In this document: positions 23,375 through 64,000 of the stretch, piece after piece
Layout: each line of letters starts with the position of its first letter
Position numbering within the stretch: the first letter of the stretch is position 1
Source: Coprobacillus sp.
GTDB lineage: Bacteria > Bacillota_I > Bacilli_A > RFN20 > CAG-826
NCBI GenBank assembly: GCA_021203805.1
Contig: JAJQAM010000046.1
Location: 23,840 to 87,839 of the forward strand
DNA length: 64,000 bases
Direction: 5' to 3'
The notes under the pieces: generated by a model
Seen by the model: the letters and a program-made list of their open reading frames with translations, nothing else
What the model was told of the DNA's origin: nothing
Databases searched by the model: none
Translations under genes and position numbers: made by a program

Positions 23375-24141
23375 TCTACGCTAGTGAAGAGTTTAATGAG
23401 AGATTATCCGTTTTTATGGATTTTGATATCGCTGGGGAAGTATGGACCTCTCTTATCTGCATGGTCATTATCCTTATCCTTACTTTCATCGTTGGCTATA
23501 TGGCAAAGCATCATGACCCCTTAAAGAAGACTAAAGGTCTCCTTTATCTCTCCGAGTGGGGAGTGACCTTCTTTGATAGGCTCGTTCGCGATATGATGGG
23601 ACCTCAGTTTGAAGGATTCGGTGGTTATATCATGATCATCGCCATCTATCTCTTCCTCGGTTTCATCTTTGGAATGACTGGTCTTCCCTCTCCATTTACT
23701 AATCTTGCGGTTCCTTTATCCCTTGGTCTATCGACCTTCCTTATGATTCATGGAACCTCAATTTACTATAAGAAGTGGCGCTACTTTAAACGATACGTTG
23801 ATCCTAACCCCATCTTCCTTCCTATTAACTTAATCAGTATGTGGTCCCCTCTCATCTCCCTTACCTTCCGTCTATTTGGTAATGCGGTCGCGGGATGGGT
23901 CCTTATGTCTATTGTCTATAACGCTCTTGAGAATGCCTCGGCAGCGGTATTCTCCTTTGTGGAAAGCGGGCTTGGCTCGATTTGGTTTGCTCCATTTGTC
24001 GCTCCCGCTCTTCACTGCTATTTTGATTTATTCTGCGGCTTCATCCAGACGACTGTTTTCATCTTCTTCTCGATGATCCTTATCTCTCAGGAAGCCCCAG
24101 AAGAAATAGAAGAAAAACTATCATTAGAAGGAGGTAGATAA
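23368..24141 (+). CDS. atpB: F0F1 ATP synthase subunit a
   Basis: 257 aa with the conserved stator arginine segment ISLTFRLFGNAVAG. Confidence 0.9.
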   Translation: MLVYASEEFNERLSVFMDFDIAGEVWTSLICMVIILILTFIVGYMAKHHDPLKKTKGLLYLSEWGVTFFDRLVRDMMGPQFEGFGGYIMIIAIYLFLGFIFGMTGLPSPFTNLAVPLSLGLSTFLMIHGTSIYYKKWRYFKRYVDPNPIFLPINLISMWSPLISLTFRLFGNAVAGWVLMSIVYNALENASAAVFSFVESGLGSIWFAPFVAPALHCYFDLFCGFIQTTVFIFFSMILISQEAPEEIEEKLSLEGGR

Positions 24142-58733: not shown

Positions 58734-61277
58734 ATGATGATTTATTTAATTTGTGCAGGATCAGTCTTAGTCTTTGGAGCGATCTTAATCCCTCTAAAGT
58801 GCTCTAAAAAAGTAAGTCAAAACGTCATGACGTGGGTTTTACGCTTTGCCGCAATTCTCCTCATGGGTTTATTTTTTATTCGTTACTATGCCTATAGCGG
58901 CTCCGTCTTTACTAGTATCTATAAACTAGAGCTTAGTGAAACCGATCCCGAGTTCTCCTCGAGATGGCTTGCCGGTCTTACCGTTATCGCGGTCTGGCTT
59001 GAAATAGTCGCGGTCTTACTCTGCTCTTTATATCCCTTCTTTACCAGGTTTAAGGTCCTTAAAAACTACGCCAAGACTCTTGGCCTTGTTTCTAGTGTCC
59101 TTAACTTTGTTCTTATTGAGCAGGTCTCCTATTCATTCGCTGGGGAATATAGCCTTAACCTTTGCTCCATCTTTATGGCGATAGAGGTGGGACTAGTTAT
59201 TGTAATGTGTCTTCTCCCCTACCTAGAAAAAGGAGGCTATAAGATTAACGCGAGAGAGCTTTTTGATATGCTCTCCGTTTTTCTTATTATTGTTATCATG
59301 AGTGTCCCTCCCTATCTCCCCGAGGCTTTATTTGGAAGATTTGGTCTTAACCGTGTCAGCGGCTTTGAAACCTATCATAGAATGTATATCTATATCGCTA
59401 TTGGGATATTCGCTATCTTCTTACTATTACTACGTAATAGAGATAAAGACTTCATCCGTATGATGCTCCTCTATCTAATCATGGGCACGATAATCGCTTA
59501 TGCCTATAATGATAGCTTTAAAAACTTCACCGAGATTTATAGCTGGCCGCTACATCTATGTGAGCTTGGAATATTCCTTATCGCCATCTGCCTAGTCTTT
59601 AGGTGTAAATGGCTGTTTTGGTTTACCCTATTTGCAAACGTCGTTGGAGCCTTTGGCGCTATGCTCTTCCCAGGCTATAGCGGCTACTACGCTTTTAGCG
59701 ACTATGTCGTAAAGTTTTGGTATATCCACATCGCGACCTTTGTAACGCCTCTGCTCATGGTCCTTCTTGGAGTGTATGAAAGACCTAGGTTTAAGCAGTT
59801 CCTTACTGGATGCCTCGGCTTCCTCGTCTATTTTGTGGCTATCTGCTTTATCGATGCCATTCTTGTTAACTATCATAGCACAGTGGACTTCTTCTTTGTC
59901 GTCGGGACGGATATCACGGATGTTCTCGGGAGCTGGGCCACTAATATCCATAATAACTATATTTGGAGCTTTGAATTGGGAGAGCTTACCCTTAGCTTCT
60001 ACTGGCTATATCAGCTCATCTATTTTGGAGTCTACATCGTCATGATGGCGATTATGTATCTAGTCATCGAAGGCTTCCTCGTTTTAAGAGAAAACTATAA
60101 AGAAGCCGAAGATATTAACTATAGAGTGAGAGTGGAGGAATACGCTCTCAGAAAGAGAAATAATACAAGGAGATTAAGTGAGATTATGAATGAAGAAAGT
60201 AAAGACAAACTAGTGGTTAAAAATCTCTATAAGAGCTACGGCCACTCTAATATCTATGCCGTTGAAAATGCTTCCTTTACCGTCGAGGCGGGAGAGATAG
60301 TGGGCTTCCTTGGTCATAACGGAGCGGGTAAATCCACCATCATCAAATCAATCGTGGGTATTCACCCCGCCACAAGTGGTACTATTGAAGTTAATGGCTA
60401 CGACGTGAGTAAGCAGCCAGTGGAAGCGAAAAGTCAAATCGGCTTTGTCCCTGATCATTACGCCCTATATGAAAGACTAACAGGTAGACAGTATATTAAC
60501 TACGTCGCGGATTTATATAACGTCTCTATCTCTGATAGAGAGACAAGACTTAAAGATCTATGTGAGTCCCTATCTATGACGGACGCAATCGACTCAAAGA
60601 TCTCAACTTACTCTCACGGCATGAAGCAGAAGACCGCGATTATGGCGGCCCTTATCCATGAGCCAAAAGTCTGGATTCTTGATGAGCCGCTTACCGGTCT
60701 AGATCCAGTCAGTGTCTATGAGGTTAAGGAGTGTATGAGAAAGCACGCCGCGAAAGGTAATATCGTCTTCTTCTCCTCTCACCTTATCGATGTCGTTGAA
60801 AAGCTATGCGACCGTATTATTGTGATTAAGGAAGGTCATATTCTTCTAAACACTCCGCTTTCTAATATTGAAGCGAAATATGATGACCTTGAAAAGTTCT
60901 ATCTCGATATGAACGCGATAGACGTTCATAGATCAAAGGTAAAACCCGATAAGAAAGCGGCGAAAGGTATGAGCTATTTCTATCGTACTAAGCGTAGAGA
61001 GGCGAAAAAGAATCCGCCTGTTATTGAGACCACTCCATATCAGGAGTATGTCTTTGATACGATTAATATCAGCGCCGACGCTCCCAAAAAAGAAGAGAAG
61101 CGTCAGCCCACCCCTGAAGAGATCCTAAATAGCCTAATCGATGAGCTTCATAAGGATAACGAAAAAGCAAGAGAAGAGAGGCTAAGCCGAGAAGAGGAAG
61201 AAAAGGCGATTGCCGAACAGATGGCTCAGTACGGCATCGGTATCTATGACGACGGCTTTGGGATAAAGACCTATTAA
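58734..61277 (+). CDS. Fusion ORF: large polytopic membrane domain with a YwaF/TMEM164-like core (aa 1 to about 460) + ABC ATPase domain (aa 485 to about 715) + K/E-rich tail
   Basis: 847 aa. SWPLHLC...GAFGAMLFPG resembles the TIGR02206/YwaF signature, from memory. ABC motifs GHNGAGKST, YSHGMKQK, VWILDEP and SSH. An internal AAGGAG (60167..60172) plus in-frame ATG (60186) sits at the ATPase N-terminus. Confidence 0.7.
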   Translation: MMIYLICAGSVLVFGAILIPLKCSKKVSQNVMTWVLRFAAILLMGLFFIRYYAYSGSVFTSIYKLELSETDPEFSSRWLAGLTVIAVWLEIVAVLLCSLYPFFTRFKVLKNYAKTLGLVSSVLNFVLIEQVSYSFAGEYSLNLCSIFMAIEVGLVIVMCLLPYLEKGGYKINARELFDMLSVFLIIVIMSVPPYLPEALFGRFGLNRVSGFETYHRMYIYIAIGIFAIFLLLLRNRDKDFIRMMLLYLIMGTIIAYAYNDSFKNFTEIYSWPLHLCELGIFLIAICLVFRCKWLFWFTLFANVVGAFGAMLFPGYSGYYAFSDYVVKFWYIHIATFVTPLLMVLLGVYERPRFKQFLTGCLGFLVYFVAICFIDAILVNYHSTVDFFFVVGTDITDVLGSWATNIHNNYIWSFELGELTLSFYWLYQLIYFGVYIVMMAIMYLVIEGFLVLRENYKEAEDINYRVRVEEYALRKRNNTRRLSEIMNEESKDKLVVKNLYKSYGHSNIYAVENASFTVEAGEIVGFLGHNGAGKSTIIKSIVGIHPATSGTIEVNGYDVSKQPVEAKSQIGFVPDHYALYERLTGRQYINYVADLYNVSISDRETRLKDLCESLSMTDAIDSKISTYSHGMKQKTAIMAALIHEPKVWILDEPLTGLDPVSVYEVKECMRKHAAKGNIVFFSSHLIDVVEKLCDRIIVIKEGHILLNTPLSNIEAKYDDLEKFYLDMNAIDVHRSKVKPDKKAAKGMSYFYRTKRREAKKNPPVIETTPYQEYVFDTINISADAPKKEEKRQPTPEEILNSLIDELHKDNEKAREERLSREEEEKAIAEQMAQYGIGIYDDGFGIKTY

Positions 61278-61324
61278 TCTATATATAAATATAAATATAT
61301 AAATATATATATAAGGAAAGGAAT

Positions 61325-63067
61325 ATGAGCGAAAACGAGCTAGAAATTAATAGTAGTGACCCCTCACCAATGGAAGAGCCAAAAAAAGAGAGCATTTGGT
61401 CTAAACTTAAAAAAGGCTTTAAACAGGTGAAGATTCTTTTCCTTATGCAGTGCAGGGAAAAGATTGATTTCTCCGTTGTTCAAAACCCGAGAAAATGCTT
61501 TATTAGAATTCTCGTCTTCCTCATTGAGTTTGTCGTCATTGGGGCGGTAGCCTGGGCGGTCCTTCTCCTCTGTCAGTGGCTAAATATCTTTAGCCCAATC
61601 GGGATTATCCCTAACTCCGTGATGAGTGTGGTCTTCTTTATCTTATTTATTTTCTCGCTTATTACCTGCACCGCGGCCCTCTCAAGAGACTTATTCCATA
61701 GTAAGGATAATGAGGTCCTCGCCACCTATCCAAGTAGCGCTAACGCTATCTATCTCTCTAAGATTGGCGTGACTTTTATCCATGAGGTGAGAAAGACTCT
61801 TTTATTCTACGTTCCAATCTTCTTTGCTTTCTCGATTATTAGCGGTCACGCTTGGTATATCTATCTATGGGAGCTTGTAATGCTCCTCCTCTTTACCGTT
61901 TTAGAAACACTCCTAGCGGGCATCTTAGCCCTTCCGGTTCACTATATCATTATCGCCTTTAGACGCTACTTCGCGGTTAAGGTTACGGTCTCCGCAGTCT
62001 TTGCCGTCGGCGCGGTCGCTCTTGCCATTTGGCTTATCTCCCTTATCCCCGCGGATATCAATCTGATTACCATGTGGTCAAGTGTCTCGCAGGCGCTTCG
62101 TAACTTCCTTGACTGGTTTACAAAATACTTCTATATCTTCTACGCTTTTACCTTATTCTTAGTCGGACCCTTCCCCACAAACTCCTTTGCCTATAGCAGT
62201 GATCTCACCTGGGAAGTCTTCCTCGTCACTATGGCGTGTATTGTGGTCTTCTTTGCCCTTAATATTCTTATCTCTCACTATCTCTATCAGAGAGTCTCAA
62301 TTAGACAAAATGATAATCCCCCTCGTGTCATAAAAGCGGTTAAAAAGAATCATAGGAGAAGAGGCTTTAATAGCGACACTCACTACGAGAATATGAAGTT
62401 CTTCTATAACTCTAGTAACGTCGCTTCTTCAATTGCGGTCATTATCATTATGCCGCTTATTACGCTGCTTCTTAATAGCATCTTTGACGCTATCTCCACT
62501 AGACTGGTTGGAGACTACTTTGTCATCTGCTTTAATATCTTAATCGTCCTCCTCTTTACGACCTCATCTAACGTCTATGTCGCTTCGATATACTCGCGGG
62601 ATGCGGACGCCTTGAAGATCCAGAGGACCTTCCCAGAGGGCTATAAGAGAACAATCTTCCCTAAGCTTATTATGCCTCTTATCGTCTCGATGCTCACTCT
62701 TATCCCTTCCTCTATTATTTTCCTAATGAGGTGTAATATTAATACTGGTAATACAGTCCTAGTAATCTTAATGGAGGTCTGTATTGTTGTTGGTCATATC
62801 CTTTGGAGCGCAGAAATTGATTTCACCCATCCTCATACCGACCTATTCCAGACTAGCGGCGCTGCGGCGGTGAACCCTAATGAGACAAGATCTATTGTCT
62901 TATCCTTTGTCTTAAGCGCCATCGGCTTTGGTCTTACCTTCTTCTTCCTCATGTTTGCTAATCGATATATGTATCTACAGGTCTTTATAATCGCCCTTGT
63001 CTTCCTTATCTATAGGATTATTGCCTTTATGTATCGAAGTAAAGCCGCGCAGAGAAAGGAAGTATAG
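61325..63067 (+). CDS. Large polytopic membrane protein, probable permease partner of the ABC ATPase
   Basis: 580 aa, roughly 10 to 12 TM helices by eye. Adjacent to the ATPase gene on the same strand. AAGGAAAGGA SD. Confidence 0.6.
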   Translation: MSENELEINSSDPSPMEEPKKESIWSKLKKGFKQVKILFLMQCREKIDFSVVQNPRKCFIRILVFLIEFVVIGAVAWAVLLLCQWLNIFSPIGIIPNSVMSVVFFILFIFSLITCTAALSRDLFHSKDNEVLATYPSSANAIYLSKIGVTFIHEVRKTLLFYVPIFFAFSIISGHAWYIYLWELVMLLLFTVLETLLAGILALPVHYIIIAFRRYFAVKVTVSAVFAVGAVALAIWLISLIPADINLITMWSSVSQALRNFLDWFTKYFYIFYAFTLFLVGPFPTNSFAYSSDLTWEVFLVTMACIVVFFALNILISHYLYQRVSIRQNDNPPRVIKAVKKNHRRRGFNSDTHYENMKFFYNSSNVASSIAVIIIMPLITLLLNSIFDAISTRLVGDYFVICFNILIVLLFTTSSNVYVASIYSRDADALKIQRTFPEGYKRTIFPKLIMPLIVSMLTLIPSSIIFLMRCNINTGNTVLVILMEVCIVVGHILWSAEIDFTHPHTDLFQTSGAAAVNPNETRSIVLSFVLSAIGFGLTFFFLMFANRYMYLQVFIIALVFLIYRIIAFMYRSKAAQRKEV

Positions 63068-63071
63068 CCTT

Positions 63072-63542
63072 ATGAAAAAAAGCTCTATGTTTCTTATTGT
63101 TGTTGTCTTTGCGGTCGCGATTGTCGTCGTCTCTTTCTTTGGCCAGGCCATTTCAATGGACCAGTTTAAAGTCTATATGACCACTCTTGAAATCACTAAT
63201 GAGTATCAAACGTGGTATGATAGCGCTGGTAATCCGGTTATGAAGATGATTATGCTCCCTTATGATTGGGCTAACGGCTGGAGCTCGGTTTTCCTTACTT
63301 TTGAAACCGGCCCAGAAGACGCCACGGAAAAAGACGCAGTAAGGTGCTACCTCGCAAATAATACCTACACTATGGATAACGGAGAGACGGGATATTACGC
63401 CGATATCGTTAATCTCCGTGAAGTAGTGTTCTATAAGCCTGCGACGGTCAAAGCCTATGTCACCACCACAGATGGGTCTGGTCTTACCGATTCCATCGAT
63501 ATTTGGTGCTATGACCCTAATGTTTATAACTTTGACTTATAA
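63072..63542 (+). CDS. Signal-anchored extracytoplasmic beta-rich protein, possibly Ig-like
   Basis: MKKSSMFLIVVVFAVAIVVVSFF anchor, then a beta-rich domain (TVKAYVTTTDGSGLTDSIDIW). I use ATG 63072. The track start at 62997 lies inside the upstream gene. Confidence 0.6.
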   Translation: MKKSSMFLIVVVFAVAIVVVSFFGQAISMDQFKVYMTTLEITNEYQTWYDSAGNPVMKMIMLPYDWANGWSSVFLTFETGPEDATEKDAVRCYLANNTYTMDNGETGYYADIVNLREVVFYKPATVKAYVTTTDGSGLTDSIDIWCYDPNVYNFDL

Positions 63543-63565
63543 ATAATTATTATTAAGTCCATCCC

Positions 63566-63595
63566 AAAAAGCGGCTCACGGCTCAGCCGCTTTTT
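63566..63595 (+). terminator. Rho-independent terminator of the ABC cluster
   Basis: AAAAA-GCGGCT-(8 nt)-AGCCGC-TTTTT. Confidence 0.75.
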
Positions 63596-63729
63596 GTTTC
63601 TAAATGGGGACGAGTTAAAAAATTTATTATATAAAATATTTTAATTTATGGTCTTTTTTTGGGACATATACCCTAAAAGAGGCTAAAAACGGCGCAAAAC
63701 CCCTCTATTTTCCTCTTTCCTCAATAAAA

Positions 63730-63763
63730 TTGTTTTTTTTTTTTTTTTTGATAACACTATAAT
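63730..63763 (+). promoter_or_regulatory. Candidate promoter of the downstream lipoprotein gene with a poly-T spacer
   Basis: TTGTTT (63730..63735) and TATAAT (63758..63763) are separated by 22 bp, most of it the T tract. Confidence 0.4.
63733..63749 (+). repeat. Homopolymeric (T)17 tract in a promoter region
   Basis: I counted 17 consecutive T, between TTG (63730..63732) and TATAAT (63758..63763). Confidence 0.9.
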
Positions 63764-63830: not shown

Positions 63831-64000
63831 ATGAATAGCAAAAAAGGATTATTTTTATCGATTATTGTCTCGGTAGGGGCGATGGGCGCCTTATCGAGCT
63901 GTTTAGGCGCCATTGAAGGGAATGAGTCAGACGCTACGGTCACTAGTGTAACTCTTAATAACCTTGCGACCTATTATTTACCCACTGACACGATTAGCTG
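63831..64000 (+). CDS. Lipoprotein, N-terminal part (runs off the window)
   Basis: My translation is MNSKKGLFLSIIVSVGAMGALSS-CLGAIEGNESDATVTSVTLNN..., a signal peptide plus lipobox LSSC. It is not in the track because it is open-ended. Confidence 0.7.
   Translation, partial: MNSKKGLFLSIIVSVGAMGALSSCLGAIEGNESDATVTSVTLNNLATYYLPTDTIS

Follow-up and report, generated by a model that had tools for sequence, protein, structure and literature searches.

What might a bacterium do with an acyltransferase-like membrane domain that is covalently joined to the ATPase of a transporter? The question is raised by a locus of Coprobacillus sp. (NCBI GenBank assembly GCA_021203805.1, contig JAJQAM010000046.1), from which we analyzed a stretch of 64,000 nucleotides (positions 23,840 to 87,839 of the forward strand; referred to below as the window, with all positions counted from its first letter and all features on its plus strand unless another contig is named). 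One gene, here called N-A, encodes a polytopic membrane domain (N) related to human TMEM164 and bacterial YwaF and, in the same frame, an ATP-binding cassette (ABC) ATPase (A). Genes for a permease (P), a small anchored protein (S), and a large surface lipoprotein (L) follow it. Our analysis shows that the fusion is old and widespread, and it suggests that most fused genes probably make a free ATPase in addition to the full-length protein. The functional reading that we favor, to which we give about an even chance, is that the four genes form an envelope module built on a type V exporter of asymmetric composition, (N-A)(A)P, in which ATP-driven lipid movement is coupled to acyl transfer.

The N-A gene (58734..61277) encodes 847 aa; the database copy of the protein, P0001, begins at the second ATG and has 846 aa. 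It stops at TAA, which rules out that a code with TGA read as tryptophan changes where this frame ends. The motifs pointed out in an initial, sequence-only reading of the locus (SWPLHLCELGIF, GAFGAMLFPG, FWYIHIATF, GHNGAGKST, YSHGMKQK, and VWILDEP) are all present in the translation, and the assignment of the membrane part to the YwaF/TMEM164 group held up in family searches, with residues 218 to 442 matching PF14808 (TMEM164) at an E value of 5.9e-18 and 65.6 bits, compared to a gathering score of 25, over profile positions 11 to 217 of 217. An AlphaFold2 model of the fusion (mean pLDDT, 88.1; pTM, 0.74) has 13 transmembrane (TM) helices. Six of these make up an N-terminal extension that is specific to this family (aa 1 to 205; 58734..59348), and seven form the TMEM164/YwaF-type core (aa 206 to 476; 59349..60161), which is marked by the PF14808 match and by residue conservation; the last membrane helix (aa 424 to 476) extends as a stalk into the cytoplasmic linker and ATPase. 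The idea that the extension is a duplicate of the core was rejected, as hhalign gave a probability of only 9% for the two.

Several residues of the core are conserved across 68 aligned sequences: His215 (59376-59378) and Pro272 in all 68, Cys276 (59559-59561) and Gly305 in 66, His332 (59727-59729) in 65, and His274 (59553-59555) in 64. In the same sequences lysine and arginine account for 31% of the loops assigned to the inside versus 5% of those assigned to the outside, which by the positive-inside rule fits an N-out/C-in topology with the ATPase in the cytoplasm. Under that topology TM7 and TM9 carry His215 and Cys276, respectively, at their outer ends, and TM11 carries His332 in its outer half, so that the putative active site would face the outer leaflet. 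Profile-profile comparison aligned the fused N cores with the standalone YwaF proteins of related genomes (probability, 99.6%; E = 3.8e-24), pairing Cys276 and His332 with the invariant Cys and His of YwaF, and the YwaF profile in turn had a single, weak match in the PDB, to TMEM164 (9lw1_A; E = 0.21), in which C123, G155, and H181 stood opposite the Cys, Gly, and His, respectively. By way of these two alignments, Cys276, Gly305, and His332 align with C123, G155, and H181 of TMEM164. A different pairing, in which residue spacing alone equated P272-L273-H274 with TMEM164 P122-C123-H124, was replaced by a HMMER alignment that places Cys276 opposite C123. A PDB sequence search with aa 1 to 480 gave no match, the profile of the fused N cores missed TMEM164 in the PDB, and the best 50 listed Foldseek matches to the whole fusion model were all ATPases. 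TMEM164 takes its acyl group from a phospholipid through an acyl-Cys intermediate; C123 is needed for the acyltransferase activity and bears the acyl thioester, and mutagenesis demonstrated that the cellular function needs G155 and H181 (bioRxiv 10.1101/2022.07.06.498872; PMC12830759).

Fused genes of this kind are common. A protein search recovered 52 clusters with the PF14808+PF00005 architecture (724 to 888 aa; 34 to 73% identical), which NCBI names, where it gives a name, only as "YwaF family protein." A species-level scan of one genome per species identified fused genes in at least 57 species genomes, in records labelled Clostridia, Christensenella, Bacilli, Acholeplasma, Izemoplasmatales, Enteromonas, Pelethenecus, and Scatosoma. 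The distribution in the window's own order is patchy: 58 of 201 sampled genomes (0.8 to 2.2 Mb) match the domain, about 50 of them with frames of 700 to 880 aa. Orthologs are found in both states, for at three loci (L070, L079, and L091) N, A, and P are encoded by separate adjacent genes. In a tree of the ATPase domains the fused genes are monophyletic, with the split operons as their sister group and the plain pairs of ATPase and permease genes outside; a single ancient fusion event is the simplest reading. The suggestion in the sequence-only reading that this is a recent fusion by loss of a stop codon was therefore not upheld, as one old clade extends over many genera and several orders. In many of the plain pairs (L068-L090), which combine an ATPase with a PF16949-like permease and no acyltransferase domain, the gene upstream encodes a MgsA-type AAA+ ATPase, and some have a protein of ∼1800 aa upstream. 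The 430-aa gene 5' of these pairs was considered as a part of the module and rejected once it was seen to be this MgsA-type ATPase, whose position is probably an unrelated case of neighborhood conservation in Clostridia.

The possibility that two genes were merely joined by a sequencing error in this assembly can also be weighed at this point. The ribosome-binding site and ATG at the junction are what one would see if two genes had been run together, and nothing further speaks for it. The uninterrupted frame is kept in more than 60 independent assemblies, making a missed stop or frameshift at the junction very unlikely; there is a second paralog in the same genome, and both copies are present in a relative assembled into 5 contigs. 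We regard the probability of an assembly or annotation artifact as negligible. The second cassette of the window genome (835 kb; 68 contigs; 78% complete) lies on the minus strand of another contig (C67:168-6993), is 52% identical, and encodes a fusion of 767 to 772 aa with an intact WPLHLC, a permease of 572 aa, and a small protein of 155 aa. Two cassettes are likewise present in a same-genus genome, G088 (∼800 kb; 96% complete).

The junction between the two domains has a second property that bears on how the gene is used. As the sequence-only reading had stated, a Shine-Dalgarno (SD) sequence, AAGGAG, lies at 60167..60172, within the Arg-Arg codons AGG AGA, and is followed 13 nt later by an in-frame ATG (60186; Met485) at the start of the ATPase domain. 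The Met at this first ATPase residue is kept in 41 of 43 database homologs, and the ATG is kept in 53 of the 62 fused genes for which DNA was in hand. We measured SD strength as the anti-SD pairing energy of the 17 nt upstream, with 1277 other internal ATGs of the same genes as controls. The median was -8.5 kcal/mol, compared to -1.5 in the controls (Mann-Whitney p = 8e-26), and energies of -8 or lower were found in 66% of fused genes and 2% of controls. Different clades encode the SD through different peptides (RR, GR, GG, EG, or KG), and its strength exceeds what those peptides alone would bring: in recodings that preserve each peptide and the gene-specific codon usage, the mean was -5.02, versus an observed mean of -7.97 (Wilcoxon p = 8e-9), with 16 of 53 genes in the lowest 5% of their own recodings (p ∼0.03 for the window gene and ∼0.02 for the C67 paralog). 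The SD and the start codon also vary together. Seven genes that have ATC, ATT, ATA, or GCA at the Met485 codon have no SD (six belong to one subclade of the ATPase tree and one, L048, lies elsewhere), and one gene that has GTG in this position has a very strong SD. A contig of Candidatus Izimaplasma (L059:2-3889) has a weak SD (-2.4) and a separate gene for a free ATPase between the fusion and the permease, which, on its gene content, is a naturally occurring arrangement with a dedicated gene for the second ATPase. Given the retention of the ATG, the strength of the SD, the codon choice, the covariation of SD and start, and the L059 variant, most fused genes probably yield the full-length fusion together with a free ATPase that begins by internal initiation. 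The proposal that one gene could give both products thus has strong comparative support, and the window gene itself very probably does so.

A free ATPase in addition to the fused one is what the predicted architecture of the transporter would call for. The nucleotide-binding domain runs from Met485 to approximately aa 730 (60186..60923; delimited by PF00005 and Foldseek) and is a complete ABC ATPase, as had been read from its motifs: PF00005 matches at aa 511 to 653 (E = 9e-31), and the Walker A GHNGAGKST, signature YSHGMKQK, Walker B VWILDEP, and switch His683 are all present, with GHNGAGKST, YSHGMKQK, ILDEP, and H683 invariant across homologs. Foldseek aligned this region (aa 492 to 727 in the model) to free ABC ATPases with TM scores of 0.89 to 0.91. 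It is of the DrrA/GldA/NodI/PmtA (ABC-2) type, and its best NCBIfam matches, GldA and DrrA, are all under the equivalog cutoffs. The adjacent gene (61325..63067) encodes P, a protein of 580 aa that had been called the probable permease; it matches PF16949 with 28.7 bits (gathering score, 25.7), and its model (pLDDT, 89.2; pTM, 0.83) has 12 helices in two 6-TM halves. The best PDB match of this model is Rv1217c (8k1m_B; E = 2.6e-3; TM score, 0.38 to 0.41; 9% identity), and further fold matches are to ABCG2, PmtCD, NosY (7o0y, 7znq), and CcmB, all with modest scores and all of type V (ABC-2). On the predicted fold, then, P is a single-chain type V (ABC-2) exporter permease. Rv1217c is likewise one chain with two unlike 6-TM halves; it pairs with two copies of the ATPase Rv1218c and has a lipophilic cavity that holds lipid (PMC11406275). 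Because this best fold match works with two ATPases, one P may by analogy need two as well, and the complex would be (N-A)(A)P with a single enzyme domain.

These same fold matches are the starting point for another explanation, that the locus encodes an ordinary efflux pump for drugs or peptides. Its fused membrane domain would be a nonenzymatic accessory, and the SD and ATG would be a relic of the boundary between the ancestral genes. P has its best fold match in a rifampicin efflux pump (PMC11406275), the ATPase is of the DrrA/PmtA/lantibiotic-protection type, and the SD and ATG occupy exactly the position where the ATPase gene starts in the split operons. A relic SD, however, should have decayed among genes that are only 31 to 73% identical, and this one is stronger than synonymous expectation and mostly absent where the ATG has been lost. 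The active-site residues are conserved, and conserved S and L partners are atypical of efflux pumps. We accordingly give this explanation little credence.

The remaining parts of the module would act at the cell surface. S (63072..63542) is a small protein with an N-terminal membrane anchor and a beta-rich ectodomain. The open reading frame lister places its start at TTG 62997, and we set it at ATG 63072 because the homologs begin at MKK. The description of S as signal anchored and beta rich was borne out by these homologs, which have the common anchor MKK...FFGQ and a beta-rich ectodomain; compared to the Big_2-bearing protein encoded by the third gene of split operons, the alignment is limited to the anchor. 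S belongs to no Pfam family, and its profile recovered nothing usable from the PDB or Pfam, which lends no support to an Ig-like fold. An intrinsic terminator follows (63565..63600), with a 12-bp stem at 63565..63596 and a T run (-18 kcal/mol; z = -5.1); it was not picked up by a consensus scan.

The locus had first been described as a cluster of three same-strand genes ending in this strong terminator. The three frames and the terminator are real, and yet the unit is larger. In nearly every locus with enough flanking sequence, an L-type protein of 670 to 1640 aa with a signal peptide and a lipobox Cys is encoded on the same strand 3' of S; in one clade L precedes N-A. Because a homologous large lipoprotein adjoins the cassette in ∼50 loci, the module is, as far as conserved gene order can define it, one of four genes (N-A, P, S, and L). 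A set of 53 flanking lipoproteins forms one BLAST-connected family, including both that follow the window cassette. The window L starts at 63831 and continues beyond the end of the window (63831..64000 within it); it has the lipobox LSSC and is 896 aa long in the full contig, where a second paralogous lipoprotein comes next. These two tandem paralogs were located at C65:87670-91636, just beyond the window end, and the first is interrupted by a run of N that marks an assembly gap. Two lipoproteins also follow each cassette in a same-genus genome (L092, L093). Next to the C67 cassette is a very acidic lipoprotein of 718 aa that falls outside the L family at the clustering threshold used. The N termini of L proteins carry variable Big_3, Big_2, or Flg_new repeats in Pfam searches, and N-terminal Ig-like domains were the only matches of the L profile in the PDB. 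Upstream of the window L (63730-63763), a (T)17 run separates a -35-like TTG from a perfect TATAAT. This layout resembles the homopolymer-controlled, phase-variable lipoprotein promoters of mycoplasmas.

Two smaller features of the cassette can be placed here. The spacer between the fusion and the permease (61279-61316) is an A/T-only microrepeat of ATATAAAT units and an AT run, situated directly before the permease SD. The K/E-rich tail of N-A that had been noted (aa ∼731 to 847; 60924..61274) is present, and among relatives it is restricted to the closest (P0002 and P0003); the model has disorder at aa 744 to 789 and a long helix at aa 794 to 832. The tail, with this predicted helix of 39 residues, has a weak, subthreshold match to the N-terminal coiled coil of H-NS and might be a dimerization element.

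In the mechanism that we favor, P would be an exporter that requires two ATPase domains, both supplied by the first gene. The full-length N-A product would tether one ATPase to a 13-TM domain with a Cys276/His332 acyl-enzyme site in the outer half of the membrane. The free second ATPase would come from internal initiation (SD 60167; ATG 60186), and the complex would be asymmetric. P would move a lipid at the expense of ATP, and the tethered N domain would transfer an acyl group at the outer leaflet to an acceptor that could be the lipid anchor or N terminus of the L lipoproteins, or a lysolipid; S would serve as an adaptor. We infer the use of the internal start, the stoichiometry, the catalysis, the substrates, and any contact with L or S.

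A number of observations weigh against this mechanism. TIGR02206, the NCBIfam model described as "TMEM164-related integral membrane acyltransferase," is matched with E = 1.1e-13 and 51 bits, under its curated 75-bit cutoff, and because that cutoff is missed the N core is, on profile scores, a divergent YwaF subfamily and not an ordinary YwaF. The residue correspondence with TMEM164 depends on the weak PDB match plus one profile-profile step. The distance between SD and ATG is 12 to 13 nt in the window and in a large subclade, above the usual optimum. In eight genes the ATG persists behind a weak SD, and one clade is without both; internal initiation would therefore not be a universal source of the free ATPase. 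The window L has its own promoter behind the terminator. Finally, there are cassettes in which the putative active site is dead: P0004 has WPLSLS and His332 replaced by Arg, and P0006 has WPLGIT and His332 replaced by Gly. The P0004-type copy in a same-genus genome keeps an intact ATPase, P, S, and two lipoproteins, and the N domain would therefore appear also to have, or to be reducible to, a noncatalytic role. This gene (L092:1716-4019 in G088), with WPLSLS in place of WPLHLC, resembles a pseudoenzyme version of the module.

Such dead-site cassettes, which keep everything else, are what one might expect if the module were a mechanotransducer like NosDFY, which would transport nothing; ATP hydrolysis would drive a conformational change in L and S, and the N domain would be mainly a scaffold or regulator. 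NosY is among the fold matches of P, L gives weak signals of a beta helix or pectate lyase-like fold, and conservation of the S membrane anchor extends even to split operons. Other observations count against this reading. The NosY matches are weak (E = 0.5 to 3), and the best match is a lipophilic efflux pump. The Beta_helix or Pectate_lyase_5 matches to the L core were found in only 5 of 28 L proteins and were subthreshold every time, and family searches gave no match to NosD or NosL. Moreover, more than 92% of the sequences retain the Cys/His/Gly site despite their deep divergence, which favors catalysis. We consider a mechanotransducer unlikely, although it deserves to be taken seriously.

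The genome in which the module resides bears on what lipids it might handle. Neither a penicillin-binding protein (PBP) transpeptidase nor FabF was found in the window genome or in five relatives of the same family that are 96 to 99% complete, and a DegV/FakB protein is present in the window genome; the lineage thus looks wall-less and dependent on external fatty acids, in the manner of mollicutes. Lgt is also present, and Lnt (TIGR00546) had no match in the window genome, which is 78% complete. The Lgt sequence (C51:7374-8132, minus strand) is part of an open frame of 725 aa that also encodes additional membrane helices on the N-terminal side and, at the C terminus, a domain resembling HAD phosphatases (DLDGTLA...).

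In a fatty acid auxotroph, the module could instead be devoted to scavenging and remodeling of lipids, with the N domain acting as an outward-facing transacylase that takes acyl chains off exogenous phospholipids, of host or dietary origin, and loads them onto lysolipids of the cell itself, P presenting or removing lysolipids, and L being only a coregulated surface adhesin. TMEM164 itself takes an acyl group from a phospholipid via acyl-Cys, the lineage lacks FabF and has DegV/FakB, and the putative site is on the outer face. This scenario would leave the strict synteny with one lipoprotein family unexplained. It also sits poorly with the patchy presence of the domain in the order, where the relatives presumably share the auxotrophy, and with the occurrence of the module in genomes labelled Christensenellaceae or Clostridia. 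Both scavenging as such and the accompanying roles of P and L seem doubtful to us, with a rather low probability. A more specific form of the favored mechanism is that the two proteoforms build an ATP-coupled, outward-facing acylation machine that acylates or remodels the anchors of its own, possibly phase-variable, L lipoproteins; at this level of detail we also think it the less probable outcome, one that would be right only in a minority of cases like this.

Comparison with known systems helps to delineate what is unusual here. Human TMEM164 (PF14808; cryo-electron microscopy structures 9LW1/9LW3) and bacterial YwaF/TIGR02206 belong to the AIG1/TMEM164/GPC1/YwaF/YpjA (ATGY) superfamily, with which the N core shares a multihelix membrane fold above the Pfam gathering score and the aligned Cys, Gly, and His; N-A differs in its six extra N-terminal helices and its covalent ABC ATPase. 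The Rv1217c-Rv1218c exporter of Mycobacterium tuberculosis (8K1M; type V) resembles the module in its single-chain permease of two 6-TM halves, with a fold match that is modest, but it lacks a fused enzyme domain, counterparts of S and L, and an internal start. In NosDFY(L), which serves in nitrous oxide reductase maturation, an ATPase and a permease of the ABC-2 kind likewise work with a lipoprotein and a large protein outside the cytoplasm, and NosY is among the fold matches of P; in contrast, P is a fused 12-TM chain, the Nos system has no acyltransferase, and a beta helix in L is only weakly indicated. Lnt has its active site on the outside and draws on a phospholipid donor by way of an acyl-Cys intermediate, and LplT-Aas couples a lysolipid flippase to an acyltransferase. 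Lnt, Lit, LnsAB, and LplT-Aas have no homology to the window module, and any analogy to them would be purely functional. In-frame internal initiation yields two proteoforms in ClpB, IF2, and CheA, and Cas11 is made from within cas8. N-A resembles these in having a conserved SD and start codon inside a long frame for a shorter C-terminal product, and it differs from them in that its predicted short form would serve an ABC transporter as the second ATPase.

Our literature search found no publication on a fusion of TMEM164/YwaF to an ABC ATPase or on the cassette, and none in which the function of a bacterial YwaF protein was studied. Both partners, the ABC transporters and the TMEM164/YwaF acyltransferases, are familiar, and their covalent joining is apparently undescribed in the literature that we searched. 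The claim of novelty in the sequence-only reading can thus be kept in part: no paper describing the fusion was found, but genomes assembled from metagenomes commonly encode this architecture, with "YwaF family protein" as the sole annotation.

Two cassettes of ∼8 to 10 kb each make up ∼2% of a 0.8-Mb genome, and the module is spread across many uncultured gut Bacillota with small genomes; in view of this investment and distribution, it probably has an important task at the cell surface. If the two-proteoform model is true, a single gene would give these bacteria a compact route to an asymmetric ABC machine. Should the enzyme act on lipoproteins or on lipids of the outer leaflet, this would bear on how wall-less, fatty acid-dependent bacteria build and vary their surface, which includes lipoproteins recognized by host TLR2, and an acylation machine of this kind would be a candidate for the activity that N-acylates lipoproteins or edits their anchors in mollicute-like bacteria that have neither a wall nor Lnt. 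The module may also offer a bacterial model for the TMEM164 reaction.

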